This document shows positions 1,466 through 64,000 of a stretch of 64,000 bases of DNA, one piece after another. The notes beneath the pieces were generated by a model that was not told where the DNA came from, ran no database searches, and worked only from the letters and a program-made list of their open reading frames with translations. The DNA is taken from contig DASYAT010000066.1 of the NCBI GenBank assembly GCA_036501205.1, positions 42,745-106,744 on the forward strand. Direction: 5' to 3'. Both the position numbers and the translations under genes were made by a program. Source of the DNA: Streptosporangiaceae bacterium (GTDB lineage Bacteria; Actinomycetota; Actinomycetes; Streptosporangiales; Streptosporangiaceae). Position 1 is the first letter of the stretch; every line of letters starts with the position of its first letter.

Positions 1466-4400
1466 ATGCGATACCGACTCCTTGCCACCTTTCAAGGGGC
1501 GCCGTACGAGGCCGGAGTCGGCCCTGACGATTCCGATGTCGTGCTTTTCGCGGCCTGCCCGCCGCCGGAGGAACTGAAGTTCGAGCCGGCCACCGGGCAC
1601 TGGCGCAAGCAGGTCAGCCGCACCGCAGTGCAGACGCTTTACGAGTCGCGCCCGATCGGAATGTTCCGTGGCGAGCGTTGCGTCGTCCTCGACGACCTGA
1701 CCGACCGGCTGCATATCGTCTATCTCGGCCACGACGCCATCCGAGCGGCGCAACTCGGTTACTGGGAAGTGGACCGGGGCGTGTTCGAGCTGATCACGCC
1801 GCGCCACGAAGTCGCCGACATCGTCGAACAGCGGATGCCCCTGTCCACCCGCGACGACAGCGGCCCGCACAGCAGGCCGCTCCCCCGGGTTCCGCTCTCC
1901 GACGGCGAAGAGGAGTCAAGCCGCTCTCAGCCGGGCGGCTATGACCAGTTGCCTAGAGTCGACGGGCTTAGCGGGTACGAGCCGGACTCCGCGCTGACCG
2001 GGCCGTCACACTCTGGCCGGTCGGGGCGTTCTGACCAGGACATCTTGCGGTCGGGCGATCAGTCCAGCATCTCGATTCCGGCCGTCGACGAACCGCCTCT
2101 GCCGCTAGAGGCCCAGGCGCTGCGAGCTGCCTCGACAGCGGCGCGCCGGGGTCAGAAAGGGCAGTCTCGCCAGACCCAGGAGACCCGGTCAGGCAGGCGT
2201 TCTCAGGCCGCCATCCCGAGCCAGCCGGATCCGCGCGGCCAGTCAGGACCGCACACTCAGCCGGGCGTGCCTAGCCAGCCCGGGCAGCACGGCCAGACCG
2301 GCCAGCACAGCCAGCACGGCCAGACCGGCCAGACCGGCCAGCACAGCCAGTCCGGGCGGCACTCGCAGCCAGCCGCACCCGGCCAGTCGACGGCACCGAA
2401 CCAAGCCCCGGAGCAGGGCCAGACCAGCCCGTACGGCCAGCCGGGTCAGCCAGGTCAGGCCGATTTGTACGGCCCGGACTTGTACGGCCCAGGCTCGCCC
2501 AGCCGGCCCGGCGTGCATGCCCAAACCAGTCCGCTGGCCCAGGGCAACCCTCTTGCCCAGGGCAACCTGATCACGATGACGGATCAGCCGCCAAACGCGC
2601 TGAGCCAGCCGGCGGTCGCGCCGGTGCACGCGGCCGCGCCGGTTCATCCAGTCGCGCCTGGCCAGCCAGTCGCGTCTCCGCCGGCCCAGACCCTGCTGCC
2701 CTCCACCTCGACGGAGGCACTGAGTCAGCAGGCCGCCCAGCCGATGACGGCCACGCCTCCTGGCCTTCCCGGCGCGCCAACCGAGCAGTCGATCTCGATC
2801 AGTCAGCCAGCGCACGCCGCCGGACCTTCCGCTGCGCCAGTCACCCACCCGGCCGGGCTCAGCCAGCCCGCTCATCCCCAAGCGCCGGGTCACCCGGGCC
2901 TAGGCGCCGACCAGACCGTGGCGCTCAGCCAGCCCGCCCACGCCGCGGCGCCGATGCCGAGCGAGGCCACGGCCGGTCTCAGCCAGCCCGCCCACGCCGC
3001 TCCCCCGGCATTGGCCGTACCCGACCAGCCCGCCGGGCTCAGCCAGCCAGCCCACGCCGCCCCGCACCGGCCGAGTCAGCCCGCCGACGAATCCGCTGGG
3101 CTCAGCCAGTCCACCGTGCTCAGCCAGTCCACAGGGCTCAGCCAGCCGCATGCCGTCGTGACGGCGCCCGTTCAGCCCGCTGGCCAGGTCAACGCGCTAA
3201 GCCAGCCCGCAGGCACGCCGGCCCAGCCGATCATGCCCGGACCGGCGGTCACCTCGCCAGGCTCAGCCCAACCCGGGCCCGTGCCGATCCAAGCCCAAAC
3301 CGCGCCGACCGACACGCCCGCTCAACCCGCCTCAGCGCCAGTGCCGGCCGCTCAGCCCGACTCGCCTCATCCAGCAGCCGTGCCAGCGACTCCGCCTGTC
3401 GAAAGTCAGGTCTCGTCGCCTAACGCGACCAACGTCCACAGCCGACCGTCCGACCCGGTCACGCAGGCCGAACCACCAGCGGTCCAAGCCCAGGTCGGTC
3501 AGGCCGCGATGCCAGTCCAGCCGCCAGTGGCTCCGCCAGCCGGCAGCCACGACGCGACGAACGTGCACAGCCGACCCACTGCTGAACCTCAGACTGAACC
3601 GGCCGCCGATCAGTCACACGCCCAACTCCAGACCGCCGGCCCAGCGCAGCCTGCGCCAGCCCAGCCCATGCCGGCCCGGGAGGCCCTGGCCCAGCCCGTG
3701 CCAGCCCAGCCCGGGCCAGCCCAGCCCGGCCCAGCCCAGCCCGGCCCAGCCCAGCCCGGGCCAGCCCAGCCCGGGCCAGCCCAGCCTGGGCCAGGACAAC
3801 AGCCGTCCGCTGGGCCGAAAGCCCCCAGCTCTGACGCGCCGAACATGCAAGCCTGGCCAGCGCCGATGCCCGCACCAATCAGCCCGGCCCCGGCCGGCGA
3901 TCAAGCCGCTGCCGCGTCGGTCGAAGCTGTCCCGACAAGTCCTCATCCGGCGCCACTGACTTCGTCGCAGCCGCAGGCCGACGCGTCGGTGACCACCGGA
4001 CCGCAGGCCGCACCGATGGCGTCGATGGCCCCCGCCGCTGCACCAGTCGCACCCAGCCACCCGGCGCCAGCTGACCAGGCAGCCGCGGCAGCCCCCGGAC
4101 CCGGTCATCCGGCGGCCCCAACCGCACAAACTCCGCAAACCGCGCCGATCGATCGCTCTGGCCTGCACGCCCAGCCCGCCACAGGCCAACCCGATCCCGG
4201 CTCCGCCGCAGGCCAGCACGCTCCCAGCCAGCATGCTCCGGGCCAGCACGCTCCCAGCCAGCCGACCACCGATCAGCCCGCGACTGCACCGCCCACGACG
4301 CCCATTGCGGCCCAGCCGCACCCGGCCGCCCAGCCGCACCCGGCCGTCTCGCCACACCCGGTCGCCCGGCACGCCCAGTCCGTGCCGTCATCCAGCCTGC

Positions 4401-5716
4401 CACCGGCCATGCCAGCCACACCGGCCGCGCCAATCGTGCCAGCCATACCGGCCGTGCCAGTCGTGCCTGGCCAGCCAACCGACGACCCGGCTCGACAGGC
4501 CCCAGCCGTACTGAGTCAGCCAGCCGCAGCCGCGCCAGCACCCGCCCGGCCAGAGGCGGCACCCGCCCCGCAGGCCCCAGCGGCCGAACTCGCACCATCC
4601 GAGCCGGCTTCGACCCAGCACGTCGCCGACCCCTCCTCGGCCCCCTACGGCCAGCCAGCACCGTTCCAGACCCCGGGGGCGCCCCACGCAGCGCCGCCCC
4701 ACGCAGCGCCGCCTCACCCAGCGCCGCCCCACCCAGCGTTGCCGAACCTGGCGACCCCGAACCCAGAGCCACCCCACTCCGAGCCGACGCACCAGGCTCA
4801 CCCGCACCAGGCTCAGCCCCACCAGGGCGGCATCTCCGACCCGACCACCCCGGCGCACCCGACCTCGGCGTCCGACCAACCGGTCCCGTCCTGGTCACCG
4901 CAAAACCACCCGCAGAACGAGTCCCATCCCCAGCCTCATGCCGAGCCCCCCTCAGCCGAGCCCCCCTCAGCCGAGCCCCTCTCAGCCGAGCCCCCGCCAG
5001 CCCAGCCCGCGCCCACAACGGCCGGACAGGGCCAGCCGCTCCGGTACGGGCCGTTCATCCCGGACGAGTCCGCCGTCCTCTCATCGAACGGCTCAGGCCT
5101 GGTGAACGGTATCTCGACGGCCCCGTACAACGGCATCTCACCGCCGCCGCTCAACGGCATCGCACCAGTGCCGCTCAATGGCTTCGCCTCGCACCACCCG
5201 CCGACCGTCCAGCTCCCGCTGCCGACCGAGCCCCCGCCGACCGAGCCCCCGCCGATCGAAGCCACCCGGCCGATCGAAGCCACCCGGCCAGTCAACGTCA
5301 CCCCGCCAGTCGACACCGCCCCGGCCGCACCGCCTGCTCCGTGGCCCATTCCACTTGAGCCCCAAACGGCCGCCACCGCCCAACCCGTCCCCCAAGCCGA
5401 CTCGATCCCGTCATCAGAACCAGCCGCGCCGCCCCGCCGCCGCCGCTCCACCAAGCGCCGCCTGCCGACCCAGAAGATCTTCTCCGACCTGGCCGCTCAG
5501 GCCGCGATCCCAGCCGCCGCCTACGCGATCGGCGAGGACGTGGACGGCGCGATGTGCCTGGTCCGCACCGACGAAGGCTTCGAGGTGTTCAACTCCATGG
5601 CGGGTTCGCGCCACGAAGTGAGGCTCTTCCAGGACGAGGAGTCGGCGTACTTCTACCTGTTCGGAGTCCTAGTCGCCGACGCGGTCAGGACCGGCGCATT
5701 GGCTCCCCGCGACTGA
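1466..5716 (+). CDS. very large Pro/Ala/Gln/Ser-rich low-complexity protein with small globular N- and C-terminal domains (hypothetical)
   Basis: Continuous ORF. The preferred start is ATG 1466 (MRYRLLATFQG), 7 nt after GAGGGGA. The N-terminal ~130 aa and C-terminal ~90 aa (..AYAIGEDVDGAMCLVRTDEGFEVFNSMAGSRHEVRLFQDEESAYFYLFGVLVADAVRTG..) have normal composition. The roughly 1200 residues in between are tandem peptide repeats: GLSQPAHAA, PGPAQ, QHAPS, AEPPS, PTEPP, NGIxPxPL. Confidence 0.7.
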   Translation: MRYRLLATFQGAPYEAGVGPDDSDVVLFAACPPPEELKFEPATGHWRKQVSRTAVQTLYESRPIGMFRGERCVVLDDLTDRLHIVYLGHDAIRAAQLGYWEVDRGVFELITPRHEVADIVEQRMPLSTRDDSGPHSRPLPRVPLSDGEEESSRSQPGGYDQLPRVDGLSGYEPDSALTGPSHSGRSGRSDQDILRSGDQSSISIPAVDEPPLPLEAQALRAASTAARRGQKGQSRQTQETRSGRRSQAAIPSQPDPRGQSGPHTQPGVPSQPGQHGQTGQHSQHGQTGQTGQHSQSGRHSQPAAPGQSTAPNQAPEQGQTSPYGQPGQPGQADLYGPDLYGPGSPSRPGVHAQTSPLAQGNPLAQGNLITMTDQPPNALSQPAVAPVHAAAPVHPVAPGQPVASPPAQTLLPSTSTEALSQQAAQPMTATPPGLPGAPTEQSISISQPAHAAGPSAAPVTHPAGLSQPAHPQAPGHPGLGADQTVALSQPAHAAAPMPSEATAGLSQPAHAAPPALAVPDQPAGLSQPAHAAPHRPSQPADESAGLSQSTVLSQSTGLSQPHAVVTAPVQPAGQVNALSQPAGTPAQPIMPGPAVTSPGSAQPGPVPIQAQTAPTDTPAQPASAPVPAAQPDSPHPAAVPATPPVESQVSSPNATNVHSRPSDPVTQAEPPAVQAQVGQAAMPVQPPVAPPAGSHDATNVHSRPTAEPQTEPAADQSHAQLQTAGPAQPAPAQPMPAREALAQPVPAQPGPAQPGPAQPGPAQPGPAQPGPAQPGPGQQPSAGPKAPSSDAPNMQAWPAPMPAPISPAPAGDQAAAASVEAVPTSPHPAPLTSSQPQADASVTTGPQAAPMASMAPAAAPVAPSHPAPADQAAAAAPGPGHPAAPTAQTPQTAPIDRSGLHAQPATGQPDPGSAAGQHAPSQHAPGQHAPSQPTTDQPATAPPTTPIAAQPHPAAQPHPAVSPHPVARHAQSVPSSSLPPAMPATPAAPIVPAIPAVPVVPGQPTDDPARQAPAVLSQPAAAAPAPARPEAAPAPQAPAAELAPSEPASTQHVADPSSAPYGQPAPFQTPGAPHAAPPHAAPPHPAPPHPALPNLATPNPEPPHSEPTHQAHPHQAQPHQGGISDPTTPAHPTSASDQPVPSWSPQNHPQNESHPQPHAEPPSAEPPSAEPLSAEPPPAQPAPTTAGQGQPLRYGPFIPDESAVLSSNGSGLVNGISTAPYNGISPPPLNGIAPVPLNGFASHHPPTVQLPLPTEPPPTEPPPIEATRPIEATRPVNVTPPVDTAPAAPPAPWPIPLEPQTAATAQPVPQADSIPSSEPAAPPRRRRSTKRRLPTQKIFSDLAAQAAIPAAAYAIGEDVDGAMCLVRTDEGFEVFNSMAGSRHEVRLFQDEESAYFYLFGVLVADAVRTGALAPRD
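3698..3795 (+). repeat. 15-nt in-frame tandem repeat (CCCAGCCCGG(G/C)CCAG, about 6-7 units) encoding (PGPAQ)n
   Basis: Read directly in the sequence. Similar codon-level tandem repeats occur at about 2796-3210 (GLSQPAHAA units), 4940-5005 (AEPPS) and 5222-5290 (PTEPP / IEATRP). Confidence 0.85.
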
Positions 5717-15126: not shown

Positions 15127-15271
15127 CTGCGCCTCTCCTCGAAACCTGTCCTGTCCTTCAGGCTCCGGGGATGCGCGATGAGACGCGCTATCGCGGCCCA
15201 AGGCGACCGCCGAAACGGGCGCGCCGCCGGGTGAGATCCCACCTTCTGGACCTTCCGGCGTGGCCTGCGAG

Positions 15272-15396
15272 CGTGCTACCTCCCATCCGGACTTTTACCG
15301 TCGGTACCGGAATTCCACCGGTTCAACCGGCCGATGGCCTCGGCCGGGTCGCGGACTATCACCGCCGGTTCGGAGTTTCACCGACCCCGGAGCACG
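15272..15396 (-). promoter_or_regulatory. FMN riboswitch (RFN element) aptamer
   Basis: The minus strand reads CGTGCTCCGGGGTCGGTGAAACTCCGAACCGGCGGTGATAGTCCGCGACCCG...GGTGGAATTCCGGTACCGACGGTAAAAGTCCGGATGGGAGGTAGCACG. All conserved RFN segments are present, and the P1 helix is CGTGCT/AGCACG. Confidence 0.9.
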
Positions 15397-15513
15397 CATA
15401 ACAGCTCTTACCAGTATGCCATGCCCGATGCGGGTCCTTGAGATGGGCGGCGGGCGGACGGTGTGGCATTACGCCCGCCCGCCACCGGTCCTAAGCCGGC
15501 GCGGCGCGACTGG

Positions 15514-23916: not shown

Positions 23917-23987
23917 ATTGTGCTACCTATCCCAAGGTCAGCGACCAGACCCGCCATCCCCAAGCAGCCAGACCAGCCCAACCGTAA

Positions 23988-24257
23988 GGAACCAGACCCA
24001 CCCCAACAACATTCAGCGCCCAAGCGCCGACAGCGGCCTCCGAGGCCCGGAAAGGAACCGGACCACCCCAAACAACATTCAGCACCCGAACCCGGCAGGG
24101 ACTCCGAGGATCGGAAAGGAACCAGACCCACCCCAACAACATTCGGCGCCCAAGCGCCGGCAGCGGCCTCCGGAAATCGGAACGGAACCGGACCCACCCC
24201 AAACTACATTCGGCGCCCAAGCGCCGGCGGGGGGCTCCGGGGGGTCGTCCCCCCGCG
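23988..24257. repeat. four tandem ~65-bp repeats (MIRU/VNTR-like) between ung and the kinase gene
   Basis: Units start at 23988, 24054, 24118 and 24184. Each begins GGAACC(A/G)GACC(C)ACCCCAA(A)C(A/T)ACATTC(A/G)GC. Three contain the mini-hairpin GGCGCCCAAGCGCC. The last unit ends in the GGGGGGTCGTCCCCCC hairpin. Confidence 0.85.
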
Positions 24258-39288: not shown

Positions 39289-40340
39289 GCGTGGTCACCT
39301 CGGGTTTCGTATCGAAAAACTCTGTTCGCGAGGGGAAACTAGCGAGTTCGGACGGCCACGACAACACAAACCCCCGTTTGGCACGTCACAATTTATCCAG
39401 TATTACCTAGCGAACACGTGCGGGTACTTACCGTAAGTTTTCTATGGTTAGCCGCCTTGCGAAAATGATCACCGTCGCACCATCAGCCACACTTCCGAAT
39501 CTAGCCCCGTAAGCCCCAATTGCCCCCTTAGTAACATTAGCACCGCGTCGCAGGTAGGCGCCTTGGAGCCGCCGCGCGGCCAGTCACGCGGGCGCGGCCC
39601 TCGCGGGCGCCTGCAGCCGGACTCCGCCAAGGATCCCAGTGACGCCCCCGGGAGGTACCCAAGTTGCGTCCTGAGGTCCCGGCGCGGCGCCTCGCGGGCG
39701 GGCCGTCCTGGCGTCCTGGAGGCGTTCGGCTGGGGCGCCAGGGAGGTCCGCCAGGCAGCGACGGCGGCCGGGTTGCTGCGGCGGATTCACAGCCGTCCCT
39801 CGCCGTTGCCGCCCGCAGTTCCCGCGCCGTCGTCACTTTCCGGACACGAGCTACAACGGCTAAGGGCCAGCGCCGCCACCCCTGCGGCTGCCGGGGGTCA
39901 GCGCCGCTACGACGACCCGGCGGGCGGCAACCGCTGCGGGCCAGCGTCGCGGTGCGGGCTGGCGCACTATGCCGGTTGACCGGCCCCGCCGCGGCGGATC
40001 ACGGCTGCGACGGCCTCTTTCGGTCGCCGATGAGACAGCGAGTTCTTGATTCAGTATCGCGGCGGCAGGCCTGGACAGCCGAGATGCAGCGTTTGCCCAG
40101 GTACGTCAATGGGAGGGGTGAAATCAGTGCCGCTTATTTCATCGCAAACTGCGTCTTGATGACCAATCGAGGCCGACCGAAGCCGACCAGTTGCCCGAGC
40201 AGGGCCAGGTTAGCCGCGTTCAGCGGCACGAGCGGATGCGCCGGCCGCCGGTCGCGGCGCCACTTCTCCCCGGCGCGCTACGGGCATCAAAGATCTGATC
40301 GCGGACACAACTTCAGTCACACGAGTCACACAGATTCAGG

Positions 40341-40476
40341 TGAATGTGCGTATTCATCTGACCGCCGAAGCAGGCCCCAAACAATGAATGCGCATATTCA
40401 CCGCCCTGAAATCCAGGTGAATCCGCATATTCACCTGATCGCCATCCCAGACCAGCCCGATGAATGCGCACATTCA
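40341..40476. promoter_or_regulatory. array of four TGAAT-N6-ATTCA palindromes (operator-like)
   Basis: Sites are at 40341-40356, 40385-40400, 40418-40433 and 40461-40476. The third extends to the perfect AGGTGAAT-N6-ATTCACCT. Start-to-start spacings are 44, 33 and 43 nt. Confidence 0.5.
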
Positions 40477-40613
40477 CCAGCTCGAATGGCCGCTTTCGCT
40501 CAGGAAATGGCGTCCGCGCAGGCCACGCGCATCCCGACGGCCGCCAGCAACCGACAGCGAAGCCCAGCTAGCCGCCAATCCGCAACCGCCAACCCGCAGG
40601 CGGGCGGGCACCG

Positions 40614-41420
40614 TCATCGGGGCTGGCGCGCTGGTTCCGGCGGGATCTTCCTGATGACGAACATGGGGTACCTGGCTAGCGGCAGGAGGCGGCGCGGGAG
40701 CACTGACTCCGCCCACGACACGAGTAACAAGACCGCCTTGCCGAGGATGTTGTCCGGAATGGCGACTCTGGTCACATCGTTCTCGAGTACGGCCCAGGTA
40801 CGCAGCTGCAGATCCATGTGCTCGCCTGAGACCCGCTGGAGCTCGGCGCAGTCGAGGGGCGTGTAGGGCAGCTCAGGCCGGTCAGGGACGATCGCCTTGC
40901 TGCTTCGGCGCGCGCGCAGGCGCTCGGTGAGCCGGAACAGCGGAGCTGACTGGCGGGTGTAGACGACAAATCCGGCACCGCCATCGGCGAGCACCCGGTG
41001 GATCTCGGCCATGGCGCGGAACTGCCGGCGCCGCGGCAGGTGATACAGGACATGAGCGCAGTGAACGCGAGTGATGGAACCTGACCTGAACGGCAGCATG
41101 GAGGCGTCAGCCTGGATATAAGCCGACGTGGTGCCGAGGGCGGAGCGGGCACCTTGCAGCGCCGCTGCCGTGACGTCAATGCAGACCCGGCGCGAACCAG
41201 AGTCTGGCACCCGAATCGGGTTACCGCCGCAGCCGACGTCAAGCAGCGTCCCCCCGGCCGCCGCTAGCTGCCTGGCCACCCGGCGATCCCGGCGACGGTA
41301 GTACCCGCGCATGACCGGCCGAAGGTCAACGAAGTGCTCCGCGTCACGGTAGCTGCCTGAGGAACCGACCTGCCACCCGTAAGTCTCGTAGAACTCACGC
41401 ACTAACTCTTGCTCGCTCAC
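40614..41420 (-). CDS. class I SAM-dependent methyltransferase
   Basis: The LLDVGCGGNP motif I and downstream motifs are present. The start was chosen at GTG 41420 (MSEQELVREFYE), 9 nt after GGGAGG; the track start is 41507. Confidence 0.75.
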   Translation of the reverse strand: MSEQELVREFYETYGWQVGSSGSYRDAEHFVDLRPVMRGYYRRRDRRVARQLAAAGGTLLDVGCGGNPIRVPDSGSRRVCIDVTAAALQGARSALGTTSAYIQADASMLPFRSGSITRVHCAHVLYHLPRRRQFRAMAEIHRVLADGGAGFVVYTRQSAPLFRLTERLRARRSSKAIVPDRPELPYTPLDCAELQRVSGEHMDLQLRTWAVLENDVTRVAIPDNILGKAVLLLVSWAESVLPRRLLPLARYPMFVIRKIPPEPARQPR

Positions 41421-41718
41421 GACCCGCACCCTCCCTGACCGATGGCGGCGACGCCCAGGCAGCCGACCTCCCAATTTGATATTCGCATCAGGACAAGCCG
41501 TCAGCAATGACGCGGCCGGACCCCGCGGAAGCGGATACGCGGAACGCCGGCCTGCAGTACGCCGACCAGCGAGGACTGGGGCAGGCGCGGGGGGCGTTGG
41601 GCGCTAGCTCCAGTTGGCGTCGGCCTCGCGGACGACGACGCCGACGACATCAGCCAGTCATACTCGTAGGTGAAGGACGCGATCAGAACAGCTGCGGGAA
41701 ATCTCAGACTCGGCCGAA

Positions 41719-42342
41719 TTGCGGGCCCAGCTCCAGCACGTGCACTGGATCGGCGGCGGCAGTGGCGGTGGTAAGTCGACGATCGCCCGACGGCTGGCGG
41801 AGGCACACAGCCTGACCGTCTACTCGACCGACGCGGTGATGTCAGACCACGCCAGCCGGAGCACGGCGCAGGACGCACCGTACCTGAGCGAGTTCAAGAC
41901 CATGACGATGGACGAGCGGTGGGTGACCCGGTCCCCGCGGACCATGCTGGACACCTTCCACTGGTTCAGGGGCGAGGGTTTCGAGCTGATCGTCGAGGAC
42001 CTGCTGCGGCTGCCGGCCAAGCCAGGCGTGATCGTCGACGGCTTCAGGCTGCTGCCGCACCTGGTGAATCCGCTCCTGAGAGATTCAGGACAGGCCGTCT
42101 GGCTACTGCCCACACCAGAGTTCAGGTTCGCGGCGTTCGGCAGCCGCGGATCTCTCTGGGAGATCGCCAGGAAGACAACCGACCCCGAGACCGCACAGCG
42201 CAACTTGCTCGAGCGCGACGCGATGTTCACCGATCGGCTCAGCGGGGAAACCAAGCGTCTTGGCCTGCCAGCGATCGAGGTTCGTCTCGGAATTACCGAA
42301 GATGAGCTGGCCGACCGCGTAGCTGACATCTTCCGGCTATGA
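41719..42342 (+). CDS. P-loop NTPase / nucleotide-kinase-like protein (hypothetical)
   Basis: Walker A GGSGGGKST lies near the N-terminus. The size (~200 aa) fits small kinase-fold proteins. The GTG at 41740 may be the true start. Confidence 0.6.
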   Translation: MRAQLQHVHWIGGGSGGGKSTIARRLAEAHSLTVYSTDAVMSDHASRSTAQDAPYLSEFKTMTMDERWVTRSPRTMLDTFHWFRGEGFELIVEDLLRLPAKPGVIVDGFRLLPHLVNPLLRDSGQAVWLLPTPEFRFAAFGSRGSLWEIARKTTDPETAQRNLLERDAMFTDRLSGETKRLGLPAIEVRLGITEDELADRVADIFRL

Positions 42343-42485
42343 CCGAACCACGGGACTCCGCCGAGCTCAAGCTGTGCGGCATCTGGCGGTCTGCGTTCCC
42401 CCGAGGTTGGCGATGAAATGTCCCGATTGGGCGGTCAGGAGACGTGGGCCTGGCAGCGCAGTGACGCCCGGCCAGCCGCCCGGGC

Positions 42486-42705
42486 ACTTTGTCACCGGCT
42501 AGACGCGACCTCTCATCGGTTGGAGCGGACTTCTCATCGGTTGTCGGCCACTTCCCATCGGTTAGACCGAAAACTTATCCGATATGCGGCATTTGCAACC
42601 GGGGTAATCATAGGGAAGTGCTCGCAACCGATGAGAAGTGGCGTCTAACCGATGAGAAGTGGGCTGGCGGGACCGCCGCAAACCCGGCGAAACACCCATC
42701 GGCCC
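42486..42705. repeat. iteron/inverted-repeat element, copy A
   Basis: Direct 21-nt units ACTTC(T/C)CATCGGTT.. are at 42486, 42508, 42529 and 42550. Inverted units (C/T)AACCGATGAGAAGT are at 42625 and 42646, plus a degenerate one at 42604. The core is ttatccgatatgcggcatttgcaaccggggtaatcat. Copy B is at 59008-59245. Confidence 0.8.
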
Positions 42706-42851
42706 GGGCATCCCACCCGGCCCGCCAGGCCACCGCACCCACCCCGTCCAGCCAGGCCACCGCCCAGAGCGGCCTGGCGGGCTGAAACACCTCTGCGGCG
42801 ACGTGGGCTGGGTTACATCACCCCAGCCGGAACGGACGCGGGCGGTGGCTG

Positions 42852-58267: not shown

Positions 58268-58636
58268 TCAGTAGGCCAGTGCCTGGGCGCGCCGGTTGAC
58301 CTCGCTGCACCGGTGAGCGGCGATCGCCTCAATCGGACTGCCGGGCAGCGAGTCGTCCGAGGTGAACAGCCAGCGCATCGCTTCGACGTCGGTGAAGCCG
58401 CAGTCGAGCAGCAGGGTCAGGGTGCCGTGCAGGCCCCGGACGACTTGGTCGCCGACCAGGAACGCGGCCGGGACGCCGAAAGAGCCGTCCGGCCGCTGCA
58501 CCCCGAGCAGTTTTCGGTCGCGCAGCAGCTGCTTAACCCGGTTCACGGGCAGGTCAAGCCGCTGAGCGACATCCGGCAGGGTAAGCCATTGGCCGACGGT
58601 GGCGTCGGCCTGGGGGTCAATCTGAGCCACGTCCAA
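58268..58636 (-). CDS. Rv2175c-family DNA-binding protein
   Basis: ..WLTLPDVAQRLDLPVNRVKQLLRDRKLLGV..VPAAFL..LLDCGFTDVEAMRWLFTSDDSLPGSPIEAI.. matches the Rv2175c family as I remember it. The TTG start at 58636 follows AGGGGA; the track start is 58735. Confidence 0.75.
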   Translation of the reverse strand: MDVAQIDPQADATVGQWLTLPDVAQRLDLPVNRVKQLLRDRKLLGVQRPDGSFGVPAAFLVGDQVVRGLHGTLTLLLDCGFTDVEAMRWLFTSDDSLPGSPIEAIAAHRCSEVNRRAQALAY

Positions 58637-59007
58637 ATCTTTTCCCCTGTACCGCCGTTTGCCAAACCAGGGAAAATTCCTGTTCGCCAACGGGTGTCCG
58701 GATAGTTGCGCCGGCCGGTCAGCGACAGCAACCAACTCGCCCCCGGCTAGTCGAGGAGCCGCTCAGCCAACTGGTTCCTGGCTCGGGTTATGCCGCCCGG
58801 CCGGCGGAGCGTGAAGCTGCAGCGCTGCGCGTCAGCGTTGTTGTGGCTGGCCCGAGGGGAAAGCGGCGCCGGCCCGCCGGCGTTGCTCCGGAGCTGTGCT
58901 GTCGCGGGACATGTGTCGCCGGTTTGTCACTGGTGGAATGTCGCGGTCGGATGGTTAGCGTGCGGTGGTCCTAGTGGCGCGGCTGGCGCGAGGCCAGGTA
59001 CCCGGGC

Positions 59008-59245
59008 ACTTGTCATCGGTTGGACGCGACTTCCCATCGGTTGGACGGGACTTCCCATCGGTTGGACGGGACTTCTCATCGGTTGCGGCGTCTTCTCACT
59101 GGTTAGACTGAATTTTTATCCGGTATGCGGTATTTGTGACCGGGGTAATCATGGAGAAGTCGCCGCAACCAGCGAGAAGTCACGTCCAACCGATGAGAAG
59201 TGGGCTAACGGAACCGCCGCAAACCCGGCGAAACGCCCATCGACT
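59008..59245. repeat. iteron/inverted-repeat element, copy B
   Basis: Five direct 21-nt units start at 59008, 59029, 59050, 59071 and 59092. Inverted units CAACC(A/G)..GAGAAGT are at 59166 and 59187, plus a degenerate one at ~59146. The core ttatccggtatgcggtatttgtgaccggggtaatcat and the right flank gggct..accgccgcaaacccggcgaaac.cccatcg are shared with copy A. Confidence 0.8.
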
Positions 59246-59381
59246 AACCCGGCGCCGTGTCTGGCCCGCCTGGTCGTCTGTCTGGCCCGCCTGGCCGGCC
59301 CCAGCTGCTGCGCCCAGGCGCCCCGGCGCGAAGCGCATTCCGGCAACCGGATTCGGGTCCAGGAAGCCGCATTCTCCTGAG

Positions 59382-60554
59382 TCACAGGGCGGCGGAGCGC
59401 AGCGGCACCGCCGGGTCCGCGACCTTCCCGGCATCGACCAGGGCGCCTGCCTCGATCAGCCGGCGTCCCTGCATGAGGTCTTTCGGCAGGTCAACGGTGA
59501 GCACCGCCAGTAGTCGCTGCCCAGCCAGCCAGCAGACCGCCCACTTGTCCTGCTCGGGCTCGCCGCGCCAGATCAGCCGATCGGCCCCAGCGTGATGCCC
59601 AACGTACTGCAGCATCCGGCCGAACTGCTCAGACCAGAAGTACGGCACCGGGTCGTACCGCTCGCTGCCGCCGGCCAGGTTCACCGCCAGCGTCGAGGGC
59701 GCCCGCAACGCGCCGTCCCAGTGCTCGGTGCGCAGCCGCCGGCCGAACCGGGCCGACCAGAAAGCCGCGCAGTCTCCCACCGCGTACACCCCGGGCATCG
59801 AGGACCGCAGGTGCTCATCCACCGCGACGCCGTTGTCGAGCGCGACCCCTGAGGACTCGAGCCAGCCCACCTCGGGCCTGACCCCGACCGCGGTCACGAT
59901 CGCATCGGCTGCCAGCCAGCCGCCGCCGGCCAGGCTGAGCCCGTCGTCCTGAACCGACTCGACGCGCTGGTCCGTCAAAAGCTCGACGCCGGCCGCCGCG
60001 TACCAGCCGCCCGTTCTGCCGCCGACCTCAGCGCCGATCGCCACCGCGAGCGGCGCGGGCCCGGCCTCGACGACGTGCACGGAACAGCCCTTGGCGGCCG
60101 CGGCGGTGGCGAGCTCGGCTCCGATCCAGCCGGCTCCGATGATCGCCAGCCGAAGTCCGGGCTTCAACCGCTCGCGGAGCTCGAGCGCGTCCTCGATCGA
60201 CCGCAGGAACCGCTGCCGGCCCGGCCCTGGCAGCGCGATCGGCCGCGCTCCGGTCGCGATCGCCAGCCGGTCGAACCGGTACTCACCCTGGTCAGTGCGT
60301 ACGAACCCGGCCGAAAGCTGCTCGGCTCGCTCCCCCAGCCTGACCTGGGCACCGAGTGAGTCGAGCTCGGCCCGCAGCGAGGTGTCATCGACCCTGCCGG
60401 CCATCAGCTGCTTGGACAGCGGCGGGCGATCGTACGGCGGCCTGCTCTCGGCGCCGATCATCGTGATCTGCCCGGTGAACCCGCCCGACCGCAACTCCTC
60501 GACAGTGCGCAACCCGGCCAAGCCTGCGCCGACTACGACGATCTGATCTGGCAC
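59382..60554 (-). CDS. NAD(P)/FAD-dependent oxidoreductase (ferredoxin-reductase-like)
   Basis: Two dinucleotide-binding motifs, VVVGAGLAG and AIIGAGWIGAE, plus ..YAVGDCA... The GTG start at 60554 follows GAGAGGG; the track start is 60584. Confidence 0.85.
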   Translation of the reverse strand: MPDQIVVVGAGLAGLRTVEELRSGGFTGQITMIGAESRPPYDRPPLSKQLMAGRVDDTSLRAELDSLGAQVRLGERAEQLSAGFVRTDQGEYRFDRLAIATGARPIALPGPGRQRFLRSIEDALELRERLKPGLRLAIIGAGWIGAELATAAAAKGCSVHVVEAGPAPLAVAIGAEVGGRTGGWYAAAGVELLTDQRVESVQDDGLSLAGGGWLAADAIVTAVGVRPEVGWLESSGVALDNGVAVDEHLRSSMPGVYAVGDCAAFWSARFGRRLRTEHWDGALRAPSTLAVNLAGGSERYDPVPYFWSEQFGRMLQYVGHHAGADRLIWRGEPEQDKWAVCWLAGQRLLAVLTVDLPKDLMQGRRLIEAGALVDAGKVADPAVPLRSAAL

Positions 60555-60679
60555 TCCGCACCCTCTCGCTGCGTACCTAACCACATCTTGACCACGAACA
60601 TTAACGCCAAGTCACTCGCGGCCGACCAGGCAGCAAACGCGCAATCGAGAACCGGGCGCGATCAGGCTAAACTAGGAGT

Positions 60680-60780
60680 CAGACGCGCGGGAGTCCGGTG
60701 CCGACCGGGCTGAGAGGGCGACTTAGGAGCCGCCGACCGCAGAACCTGATCCGGGTCATGCCGGCGAAGGGAGCGCACGG
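60680..60780 (+). promoter_or_regulatory. TPP (THI-box) riboswitch
   Basis: ..GGGAGUCCGGUGCCGACCGGGCUGAGAGGG....GAACCUGAUCCGGGUCAUGCCGGCGAAGGGAGC.. contains the conserved CUGAGA and ACCUGAUCCGG..AUGCCGGCG.AGGGA segments. It lies directly upstream of thiO. Confidence 0.9.
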
Positions 60781-60784
60781 GTTC

Positions 60785-62032
60785 GTGAATAGCGCCAGTA
60801 GCGCGAGCACAGCGGTCGCGCACACCGACGTACTGATCATCGGCGGCGGGGTAATCGGCCTCGCCATCGGCTGGCGGGCCGCCCAGCGCGGCCTGAAGGT
60901 CATCGTTGCCGACCCAGCCCCCGGTTACGGCGCCTCGCACGCGGCCGCCGGCATGCTGACGCCGGTCGCCGAGGCCGCCTACGCCGAGCGGGAGCTGTTC
61001 GAGCTCGGCAGCCAGTCACTGCGCCAGTATCCGGAGTTCGCGGCCGAGCTGACCGAGATCACCGGAGCCAGCGTCGGCTTCCGCCGCACCGGCACCCTGC
61101 TGGTGGGCTACGACGCCGACGACATGGCGATGGTCGCCGAGCACGCACAGCTGCGCGAGTCCTTCGGGGTGGCTAGCCAGCGGCTCTCGGCCCGGGAATG
61201 CCGCCGGGCTGAGCCGCTGCTCGGCCCGGCGATCGGCGGCGGACTGCTGATCGAAGACGACGCTTCGATCGACCCCAGGCAGCTCACCAGCGCCCTGCTC
61301 ACGGCGCTGAAGGCAGCGGGCGGCACGCACCGGCCGCAGTCAGCGACGAAGCTGCTCACCCTGGCCGACCGCGCGACCGGGGCCGAGCTCACCGACGGCA
61401 GCAAGATCACCGCGGACCAGATCGTCCTCAGCGCCGGCTGGGCGTCGGCCTCGCTGGACGGGCTCCCGCCCGGCATCGCTCCCCCGCTGCGCCCGGTCAA
61501 GGGCCAGATACTCCGTCTTAGACCAACTCCTGCGACAGTCTCGGCTGGCCTGCGGGGGATTCCGGGTGGTCGTTCCCCTTGGCCAGCACAGTCCCCGGCG
61601 CTCATAGGCCGGACCGTGCGCGGGCTGGTCCAGGGCAGCTCGGTTTACCTGGTGCCGAGAGAGGAAGGCGAACTTGTGATCGGCGCGACCCAGGAGGAGC
61701 TGGGCGCCGACACCACGGTGACGGCCGGGGGTGTCTGGCAGCTGCTGCGTGACGCGCGAGCAATCGTGCCCGGCATCACCGAGCTCGAACTCGCCGAGGC
61801 GGTGGCGGGCCTGCGCCCCGGCACCCCGGACAACGCCCCGGTGCTCGGTCCGTCCGCGCTGCCAGGACTCGTGCTGGCGGCCGGTCATTTCCGCAGCGGC
61901 GTGCTGCTTACCCCGGTCACGGCCGAGCTGATCGCGGAGTTCCTGGCCACAGGGAAGCTCGGGCCGGCCGCGGCCGCCTTTGACCCGCGGCGCTTCGCGC
62001 CCGCCGACCGGGAGCCCGCATGGAAGTCATGA
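60785..62032 (+). CDS. thiO: glycine oxidase
   Basis: ..DVLIIGGGVIGLAIGW.. FAD motif and ..VKGQILRLR.., followed by thiS and thiG. The GTG start at 60785 was chosen after the riboswitch; the track start at 60698 lies inside the riboswitch. Confidence 0.88.
   Translation: MNSASSASTAVAHTDVLIIGGGVIGLAIGWRAAQRGLKVIVADPAPGYGASHAAAGMLTPVAEAAYAERELFELGSQSLRQYPEFAAELTEITGASVGFRRTGTLLVGYDADDMAMVAEHAQLRESFGVASQRLSARECRRAEPLLGPAIGGGLLIEDDASIDPRQLTSALLTALKAAGGTHRPQSATKLLTLADRATGAELTDGSKITADQIVLSAGWASASLDGLPPGIAPPLRPVKGQILRLRPTPATVSAGLRGIPGGRSPWPAQSPALIGRTVRGLVQGSSVYLVPREEGELVIGATQEELGADTTVTAGGVWQLLRDARAIVPGITELELAEAVAGLRPGTPDNAPVLGPSALPGLVLAAGHFRSGVLLTPVTAELIAEFLATGKLGPAAAAFDPRRFAPADREPAWKS
61550..61591 (+). 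repeat. degenerate G/C hairpin element copy inside thiO
   Basis: ctgcgggggattccgggtggtcgttccccttggccagcacag aligns almost base for base with the intergenic copy at 25006-25045. Confidence 0.65.
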
Positions 62033-63085: not shown

Positions 63086-64000
63086 ATGGATACCGCCCTT
63101 TCGCCACCTGTGGGCCAGCTGCTCGGCGGCCGGTACCACGTTGGATCGCGGATCGCGCGCGGTGGCATGGCAACGGTGTATATGGGCACCGATACCCGGC
63201 TCGACCGCGTCGTCGCGCTGAAGATCGCTCATCCAGATTTCTCCGATGACGTGGAGTTTGTCCGCCGGTTCATTGGCGAGGCCCGGTCAGCGGCCAGGCT
63301 GACCAGCCCGAACGTTGTCGCGATCTACGACCAGGGCTCCGATGGACGGCTGCACTACATCGCGATGGAGTACGTCGCGGGCCGGACGCTGCGTCAGCTG
63401 CTGACCGAGCGGGGCACGCTGGGCGCGCGCGAGGCGCTGGACATCATGACCGGGGTACTGACCGGATTGGCCGCGGCCCACCAGGCCGGACTGGCGCATC
63501 GCGACGTCAAGCCTGAGAACGTGCTGCTGACCAACTCCGGCGAGGTCAAGGTCGCCGACTTCGGGCTGGCCAGGTCAGTCGCCGGGGCCGTGCAGACCAA
63601 GGGCGGCATGCTGATCGGTACCGCCGCCTATCTCGCCCCTGAGCAGGTCTCAGGTGGCGTTTCCGACGCCCGCACCGACGTCTACGCGGCCGGGATCATG
63701 CTGTTCGAGCTGCTCACCGGCAGGCAGCCGCATACGGGCGAGAGCCCGCTCGCGATCGCCTACAAGCACGTGAACGAGATCGTCCCGGCACCGTCGAGTC
63801 AGCTGCCAGGTCTCGCCCCGGCGCTCGACGCGCTGGTGGCCATGGCCACCAGCCGCGATCCCGAGCTGCGGCCGATGCACGCGGGCCAGTTCCTGCGGGC
63901 GATCGATGAGGTGCGGGACGGCGACGGCCTCAACGGGAGTTCAAGGGGGTCGTCCCCCTCCGGCCAGCACAGCGGGGGTTCAAGGGGGTCGTCCCCCTCA
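63086..64000 (+). CDS. Ser/Thr protein kinase (PknL-like by context), C-terminus beyond window end
   Basis: Not in the ORF track because it has no stop inside the window. Manual translation from ATG 63086 gives MDTALSPPVGQLLGGRYHVGSRIARGGMATVYMG..VALKI..HRDVKPENVLL..VADFGLA..GTAAYLAPEQ.. The 915 nt to the window end stay in frame. Confidence 0.88.
   Translation, partial: MDTALSPPVGQLLGGRYHVGSRIARGGMATVYMGTDTRLDRVVALKIAHPDFSDDVEFVRRFIGEARSAARLTSPNVVAIYDQGSDGRLHYIAMEYVAGRTLRQLLTERGTLGAREALDIMTGVLTGLAAAHQAGLAHRDVKPENVLLTNSGEVKVADFGLARSVAGAVQTKGGMLIGTAAYLAPEQVSGGVSDARTDVYAAGIMLFELLTGRQPHTGESPLAIAYKHVNEIVPAPSSQLPGLAPALDALVAMATSRDPELRPMHAGQFLRAIDEVRDGDGLNGSSRGSSPSGQHSGGSRGSSPS
63940..64000 (+). 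repeat. two tandem copies of the G/C hairpin element inside the kinase gene
   Basis: ttcaagggggtcgtccccctccggccagcacag at 63940-63972 and ttcaagggggtcgtccccctca at 63979-64000, the second cut by the window end. They encode SRGSSPSGQHSGGSRGSSPS. Confidence 0.75.

Follow-up and report, generated by a model that had tools for sequence, protein, structure and literature searches.

A foldback repeat with phased 21-nt units, dispersed among gene-end spacers of a Streptosporangiaceae lineage

Anatomy of the repeat upstream of the Rv2175c-like gene

The window analysed here is a whole stretch of 64,000 nucleotides of Streptosporangiaceae DNA, and proteins homologous to those it encodes carry the name "Streptosporangiaceae bacterium" and were derived from metagenome-assembled genomes and soil metagenomes. 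At the locus of interest, the gene at 58268-58636 on the minus strand had been assigned by the initial annotation to the Rv2175c family, and this assignment is supported by Pfam (PF21531, PF18367). The species-specific portion of the spacer between this gene and a reductase gene is taken up by a repeat, hereafter copy B, whose right end adjoins the reductase stop at 59382. Copy B had been regarded as a second copy of a composite element that occurs elsewhere in the window as copy A, and our analysis agrees, as the layout and the core are common to both and the alignment is collinear beyond the arrays. The features of the two copies are listed in Table 1.

Table 1. Coordinates in the window of copies A and B and of the parts of copy B
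Feature	Position	Strand	Remarks
Copy A, approximate full extent	42356..42822	+	foldback 42486-42662, core 42569-42612
Copy B, whole element	58880..59378	+	from A/B/C/D alignments; extent approximate, outer limits fuzzy
Distal degenerate direct unit (TTTGTCACTGGTGGAATG)	58921..58940	+	repeat search, 78% to unit 5
Five direct units, starts 59008, 59029, 59050, 59071, 59091	59008..59111	+	
Core, forming the hairpin loop	59106..59150	.	45 bp, 44% G+C vs 69% in the window; contains TTATCCGGTATGCGGTATTTGTGACCGGGGTAATC
Three inverted units: i1 degenerate a-type, i2 b-type, i3 a-type	59141..59202	-	
Conserved right flank	59203..59250	+	~89% identity A vs B; includes unit-like CCCATCGACTAAC
Secondary tandem repeat, 2 x 21 nt (TGTCTGGCCCGCCTGGYCG)	59258..59297	+	repeat search; right part of the element

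On the whole, phased 21-nt units converge on an A+T-richer core that is common to A and B; in copy B, the direct units, core and inverted units together span 59008-59205. The consensus of the unit, taken over 23 units in the four copies described below, is GACTTCYCATCGGTTRGACGG. In copy B, units 1-3 and 5 are of the a-type (..GGTTRGAC) and unit 4 is of the b-type (..GGTTGCGGC). Five direct units had been reported before with an exact 21-nt period; their number is confirmed, and the period is not exact, for the step from the fourth to the fifth unit measures 20 nt (motif starts 59072 and 59092). Units 2 and 3 (59029-59049 and 59050-59070) are identical, as reported, both reading ACTTCCCATCGGTTGGACGGG. 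Tandem Repeats Finder gives a period of 21 at 59014-59085 with 3.4 copies, 96% matches and a score of 130, and the repeat search finds three 39-nt copies spaced 21 nt in the direct array, together with a 56-nt inverted repeat (59050-59105 and 59146-59201, 84% complementary) that corresponds to direct units 3-5 against the three inverted units. The three inverted units of the earlier description are also present, with their positions corrected to about 59141-59161, 59161-59181 and 59182-59202, and i1, i2 and i3 pair with direct units 5, 4 and 3, respectively. With at most two mismatches, CATCGGTTGGAC occurs 13 times in the window against 5.6 ± 2.3 times in shuffles, and its seven matches with no or one mismatch all lie inside copies A and B.

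Outside the arrays, the similarity of the two copies continues approximately over 42356-42822 in A and 58880-59378 in B. At the left end it extends (AGCTGTGC) to ~58880, and the left end (ATCATGCCGGTT...) of a further insertion of the family in a relative, L042, aligns to ~58909 of copy B. The distal unit lies ~88 bp to the left of the arrays in both copies, at 42395-42412 in A. The core is kept in A, B and C (the last from a metagenome contig) and more loosely in copy D, from L042. The right flank contains a small G+C hairpin, CGCCG at 59215-59219 with CGGCG at 59226-59230, which is found in another register in copy C.

Several other readings of the units and the core were tried and dropped. 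Coding of a heptapeptide repeat fails since the 20-nt spacing of one unit breaks the frame, and resemblances to DnaA boxes, CRP sites and TraB-clt, seen by eye, are weak, with 6/9 or half-site matches only. A short minus-strand ORF (MITPV..), said at first to be partly conserved between A and B, has no ATG in copy C and reads MFTRVTNAAYRI.. in the orthologue of copy A in L030, where most changes from A alter the amino acid; because the ORF is not conserved, the small-ORF reading was abandoned. An invertible promoter is rejected as well, the orientation of the core relative to the flanks being identical in every copy and strain.

Copies at four loci and their gain and loss among relatives

The family is found at four unrelated loci, namely the 3' end of pyrF (A), the reductase/Rv2175c spacer (B), a spacer between a Methyltransf_19 gene and a gene without family assignment (C), and a spacer between an oxidoreductase gene and a PknL-like kinase gene (D). 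Copy C, on the 1.5-kb metagenome contig L025, has the same core, 4-5 direct and 3 inverted units and similar flanks, and it fills a 384-bp spacer between two convergent genes, of which the Methyltransf_19 gene is named by the gene layout of an 87% orthologue; in P0247 the spacer at this locus measures 378 bp by gene positions. Copy D is diverged, with 3 + 3 units (ACTTCCC.. and ..GGTAAGTC) and a core with AACCGGGGCAAAT, and lies between the convergent molybdopterin-oxidoreductase and PknL-like kinase genes. Altogether, three of the four copies are located between convergent genes, and in all four a stop codon is found 0-30 nt from the right end of the element.

Among the four loci, ~300 bp of sequence is collinear, including the non-repetitive core and the flanks. 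Each arm of every copy reads, from the outside to the core, a-type (..GGTTRGAC), b-type (..GGTTGCGNC) and a-type, extra units are always a-type and on the left side only, and the number of direct units ranges from 2 to 5. A member of the family is accordingly described as a ~350-500-bp non-coding repeat with a central foldback, in which two ~60-bp arms of three 21-nt units each (a-b-a) enclose a ~40-bp A+T-richer loop, and outside of which 0-2 extra direct units and one distal unit lie on the left and a variable tandem-repeat tail on the right. In copy A, the right part carries a 27-nt repeat with two copies in the window (42712-42763). The same repeat has three copies in L031 (~3950-4070), whose pyrF is identical, and L031 also shows a 20-bp tandem duplication to the left of A, so that repeat number varies at the level of strains.

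To find further members, a strict two-unit pattern was scanned in one representative genome per species and in metagenome contigs. The representative genomes gave 19 stretches, all of them unrelated tandem repeats or chance matches, and the metagenomes gave one extra contig, L025. In addition, ~250 kb of the window and related loci were searched by nhmmer, with profiles for the entire element and for the foldback, and only A, B, C, D and their orthologues were detected. Three of the four loci came to light through the sampling of this one neighbourhood, and the four do not represent a genome-wide copy count.

The comparison of relatives shows that the family inserts in gene-end spacers and that its insertion sites are polymorphic among close relatives. 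At the D site, L042 reads CTGTAGCCGCTAG, then ~355 bp, then CTGCCCGCCCC, and in L022, which belongs to the window's own species, the two flanks are contiguous (CTGTAGCCGCTAG followed directly by CTGCCCGCCCC). The site is empty in four relatives (L022, L027, L028 and L046), with a spacer of 0-23 bp. The filled site has CCGCTAG as its left flank and, ahead of the shared CTGCCCGCCCC, GCGCTTCCC at its right junction, in a possibly error-prone sequence, as L042 may contain errors in view of its many split genes; GCGCTTCCC may be a decayed duplicate of CCGCTAG. A clean target-site duplication is not found at D, the degenerate CGCT.. alone being repeated. Copy B is present in L026, with a Rv2175c protein of 99% identity, and absent from the same spacer in L027, L028, L034/L039, L042 and L046, whose Rv2175c proteins are 89-93% identical; the spacers without B are either short or occupied by other, unrelated repeats. 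The older copy is A: L031 and L032, both of the window's species, have it, and so does L030 (~92% nucleotide identity), where recombination between two units, the distal one and unit 2, has removed 116 bp, comprising the left flank and two units, at a GGTTGG that they share.

The whole segment that bears copy A is itself accessory: 2.3 kb (40530-42850), between pyrF and the upstream region of mihF, are present in L030-L032 and missing from L043-L045, and contain, besides the element, a SAM-methyltransferase gene (40614-41507, minus strand) and a P-loop/AAA_33-like gene (41719-42342, plus strand). The reductase/Rv2175c spacer is a hot spot where the repeats change from one relative to the next: a 16-nt tandem array occurs there in L027 (9841-9980), 74-nt and alternating inverted repeats in L028 (9539-9720), and a ~900-bp insert in L036 (365-1260), which is bounded by a duplicated 25-bp piece of the reductase 3' end and contains a 52-nt x 3 array and a AACTCTTCCC foldback.

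Pairing and divergence of the arms

A single long hairpin forms in every copy and folds much more stably than shuffled sequences do (z-scores -6.8, -8.0 and -8.1). In an alignment of six sequences, 7 of the 54 arm pairs are changed on both sides with pairing kept, compared with 3.0 ± 1.3 in shuffles (2 of 500 shuffles reach 7), and the covariation score is 0.135 versus 0.082 in shuffles (0 of 500), these statistics resting on four independent copies. Slid controls give 0-2 compensatory pairs. Some of the covariation falls in the variable stretch of the b-type unit, which reads GCGGCG in both arms of B and GCGCCG in both arms of C. A hand count over the copies, which are not independent of each other, gives ~17 G-U cells on the plus strand versus 9 on the minus strand and favours no strand. 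Since no strand is singled out by the wobble counts, pairing at the DNA level fits as well as pairing of RNA. The covarying arms suggest that the hairpin matters, or that the arms copy-correct each other.

The divergence between copy A of the window and that of L030 distinguishes the parts of the element. The arms differ at 4 of 95 positions (4%), against 9-17% (~12%) at the four-fold degenerate sites of pyrF, pyrD, carB and the methyltransferase gene, 13% in the core, which is about the neutral rate, and 19-31% in the flanks and the spacer, the counts for arms versus other sites being small numbers. The arms are clearly the conserved part, evolving more slowly than neutral sites (~3-fold relative to four-fold sites), and unpaired units on the left-hand side still keep the motif. 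The slow divergence of the arms could possibly point to a host function at each locus and not to a selfish element.

A probable mobile repeat and its alternatives

It is of interest to discuss first the relation of copy B to the Rv2175c-like gene, for which the initial annotation had suggested regulation through the repeat. As a regulated gene it does not hold up: iterons upstream of Rv2175c orthologues were looked for and are absent in L027, L028, L034/L039, L042 and L046. The hexamers GTCACA-N16-TAAAAA, taken as a minus-strand promoter toward the gene, do exist as a string; as a promoter they fall below the consensus scan, which gives 0 promoter-like sites, they are not positionally conserved in D, and in A and C they would face the 3' end of a convergent gene. 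In the literature consulted on Rv2175c (PMC4601284), no DNA-binding motif or target is given, and the Rv2175c-like protein as a binder of the units would be a conjecture to which the present comparisons lend no support. Directly upstream of the Rv2175c start there is a ~115-nt non-coding block (58637-58760) that hardly varies among seven related loci. It is unlikely to be coding, since L026, although 99% identical, differs from the window by 1 nt in a T-run. Beyond it the sequence is species-specific, and copy B starts ~370 bp further upstream. The block is a likely candidate for the native promoter, leader or operator of the Rv2175c-family gene, likelier than copy B. Because the family occurs at four unrelated loci, is absent in five relatives that keep the gene, and leaves a proximal block that is kept, copy B is not a conserved part of the control region of Rv2175c.

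Our preferred interpretation is that copy B is probably a non-autonomous dispersed foldback repeat, MITE/BOX-like, with the units as sites for a trans-acting protein. The element would be moved by a protein encoded elsewhere. Recognition of the units by such a protein is suggested by their 21-bp phasing, about two helical turns, and by the conservation of those that are unpaired, and as the binding sites of the mobilising protein they may be compared with multi-site transposon ends. The hairpin would be needed for the mobilising step, or be maintained by copying from arm to arm. If Rv2175c were affected at all, for instance by transcription reading through from the reductase gene or by a weak promoter directed outward, this would follow incidentally from the landing place. 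Several properties agree with a MITE, namely the size of 350-500 bp without conserved coding capacity, the dispersal over four loci in unrelated contexts, and the filled and empty sites in close relatives, for B and D. On other points the agreement stops. Alignment of the left end with the reverse-complemented right end yields short G+C-rich matches only and no outer terminal inverted repeats, the long inverted repeat being internal and flanking the core; a search for flanking direct repeats at the element ends gives nothing convincing; no transposase or autonomous partner is seen in the window or near copies C and D; and a tRNA scan for an integration target gives none. As outer repeats, a clean duplication and a partner element are not established, we state that the element works like a MITE/foldback element and do not count it as a proven member.

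Among known bacterial repeats, the pneumococcal BOX element seems to be the nearest analogue in form. BOX of S. pneumoniae, boxA-(boxB)n-boxC, which like RUP, Correia and ERIC is MITE-like, shares with the family the small size, the lack of coding, the modular build with variable tandem units and the long stem-loop, and both show enrichment between convergent genes and presence or absence among strains (PMC3049150). Location between convergent genes is reported for BOX, RUP and SPRITE repeats alike (PMC3049150). Unlike in BOX, the paired arms of the family are built from the tandem units, with a 21-bp phasing; moreover, the family has a high-G+C actinobacterial host, and the searches revealed neither terminal inverted repeats at its outer ends nor a clean target duplication or a partner insertion sequence. 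The likeness is of form only and no sequence similarity is expected, and an Rfam scan at gathering and E-value thresholds gives no family match for the element.

In overall shape, the nearest analogue would be the eukaryotic foldback transposon. Foldback (FB) transposons of Drosophila and other eukaryotes have long inverted arms made of short tandem sub-repeats around a central loop, with the length of the arms set by the repeat number. The family shares this form of arms from tandem sub-repeats plus a loop; FB transposons, unlike it, are eukaryotic and kilobase-sized, with coding sequence in some copies, and the analogy again concerns form only. Multi-site transposon ends, as of Tn7 (TnsB sites), Mu, Tn402/Tn5053 and the IS21 family, carry several transposase sites of ~20 bp, direct within an end and inverted between the ends. 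The family resembles Tn7/Mu-type ends in the unequal numbers of units on the two sides, here 5 versus 3, and differs from them in that its arrays are not at the outer ends and that no 5'-TG..CA-3' termini, 5-bp duplication or linked transposase are seen. REP, BIME and REPIN repeats, mobilised by RAYT, are intergenic hairpins without target duplication, with compensatory stems and a frequent location between convergent genes, and the REP units are palindromes of 20-40 nt with a conserved GTAG head. In comparison, the unit of the family is not palindromic and stands head-to-tail within an arm, and no RAYT gene is seen.

A bolder form of the mobile-element interpretation, which we consider rather doubtful, is that the family represents a type of foldback transposon not yet described in bacteria, or a domesticated descendant of one, whose arms are phased 21-bp protein-binding units, which would move through a hairpin or single-strand intermediate without regular target duplication, and which would belong to wider ACTTYTC-type hairpin repeats of the gene-end spacers in this lineage. 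Repeats resembling ACTTYTC-type hairpins are seen in L033 and L036. The one in L033 (1400-1560, a 91% orthologue of the C locus) is a distinct hairpin repeat in which four GAGACTTYTCG motifs alternate in orientation, and may be distantly related to the unit motif.

For annotation, recognising the family keeps a mobile or dispersed repeat from being taken for a regulatory region of Rv2175c or for a replication origin. It would also be a compact bacterial foldback element with arms of phased tandem units, a form well known in eukaryotes and paralleled only loosely by BOX, and the arms appear to be preserved across speciation. If the mobilising or binding protein is found, the cooperation of multi-site ends and hairpins, in transposition or in exaptation by the host, could be tested directly in this system. 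The family could also be useful as a strain marker, by unit number and by presence or absence, in an uncultured soil lineage.

The alternative that survives best, unlikely in our judgement, is an array of host binding sites, in which the units would be operators or landing pads for a chromosomal protein that binds DNA and regulates or organises it nearby, perhaps a nucleoid-associated protein or the wHTH protein of the Rv2175c family, the array having spread because the host uses it. A 21-bp phasing would set the bound proteins on one face of the helix, the motif is conserved even where the units are unpaired, the arms evolve ~3-fold more slowly than four-fold sites, and copy B lies upstream of the gene for a DNA-binding protein. 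Yet the five relatives that lack the element upstream of Rv2175c retain both the gene and its proximal block, three of the four copies have gene 3' ends on both sides and hence no promoter at hand for regulation, the neighbouring genes have no common function, and the copy number at a given site differs between species.

Quite unlikely, too, is an RNA element, that is, a hairpin transcribed from the neighbours that serves as a terminator, an insulator or an mRNA-stabilising 3' structure between convergent genes, or else a small RNA gene. The strong folding and the compensatory changes in the arms would fit with it, as would the right ends abutting a stop codon in all four copies (0-30 nt) and the two paired-arm substitutions between the window and L030 in copy A, both of which yield G-U on the plus strand. 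Against this, there is no U-tract, the consensus scans for terminators and promoters find 0 sites in both copies, Rfam gives sub-threshold hits to microRNA precursors only (31 bits versus a gathering score of 97), and the wobble counts favour no strand. Furthermore, a hairpin leaves the unpaired extra units and the tandem tail unexplained, and a terminator role does not explain the spread to new sites. A host-array or RNA role could, moreover, be secondary to an inserted element.

A local minisatellite, in which slippage and the formation of palindromes would have produced the arrays on the spot, in spacers prone to repeats and without transposition, is very unlikely. The number of direct units does vary from 2 to 5, the copy number of the right-hand tail does vary between strains, and the reductase/Rv2175c spacer has unrelated tandem repeats in L027, L028 and L036; slippage accounts for such variation within a copy, not for the dispersal of copies. 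This reading is largely refuted by the common core and flanks at unlinked loci, with the ~300 bp collinear across all four, and D is a single block of ~355 bp at a site of ~20 bp.

Iteron origins, such as those of pSC101, R6K, P1 and lambda ori, have phased direct repeats of 17-22 bp by an A+T-rich segment, with inverted copies, and the rep genes of iteron plasmids have autoregulatory sites made of inverted iteron copies. The family shares with them the phased repeats, the A+T-richer segment and the inverted units. An iteron-type origin or partition site, remnant or active, belonging to a plasmid, phage or satellite that has integrated, in which a Rep/ParR-type protein would bind the iterons beside an A+T-rich unwinding region, is nevertheless hardly credible: five phased direct repeats of iteron-like length do lie next to a core of 44% G+C in a genome of 69% G+C, and the inverted copies do resemble the autoregulatory sites of rep genes, but no rep, helicase, primase, par or integrase gene is found within 10 kb of A, B and D or on the 1.5-kb contig of C, the neighbours being pyrF and genes for a P-loop protein, methyltransferase, FAD reductase, Rv2175c, thiE, oxidoreductase and kinase, several copies lie in one chromosome region in the spacers of core genes (pyr operon, thiamine genes) and are inserted or absent between relatives, and the core diverges at about the neutral rate between orthologous A copies. 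Searches with blastn of B, C and D against 72,556 plasmids (PLSDB) and 50,697 phages (INPHARED) gave no matches or chance matches of ~40 bp, and pattern scans of IMG/VR with the units and with the core gave nothing real.

Apart from the family, the window contains other features of note. Four 18-bp palindromes GTGAATnnGCnnATTCAC are located at 40330-40480, in the spacer upstream of the mihF-like gene, and palindromes of this form are conserved with three copies in the pyrF-mihF spacer of L044 (10780-10880) and occur once in the insert of L036; from its sequence, the set looks like a conserved operator cluster for a putative dimeric regulator. Positions 23986-24239 hold 3.9 copies of a 66-nt tandem repeat, and the region 2270-5450 is dense in G+C-rich tandem repeats of 9-27 nt, possibly a gene for a repetitive protein. 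In addition, three riboswitches match above the Rfam gathering scores, namely FMN at 15269-15399 (minus strand), guanidine-II at 63945-64000 (minus strand) and TPP at 60677-60789 (plus strand), the last of which lies upstream of thiO-thiS-thiG.
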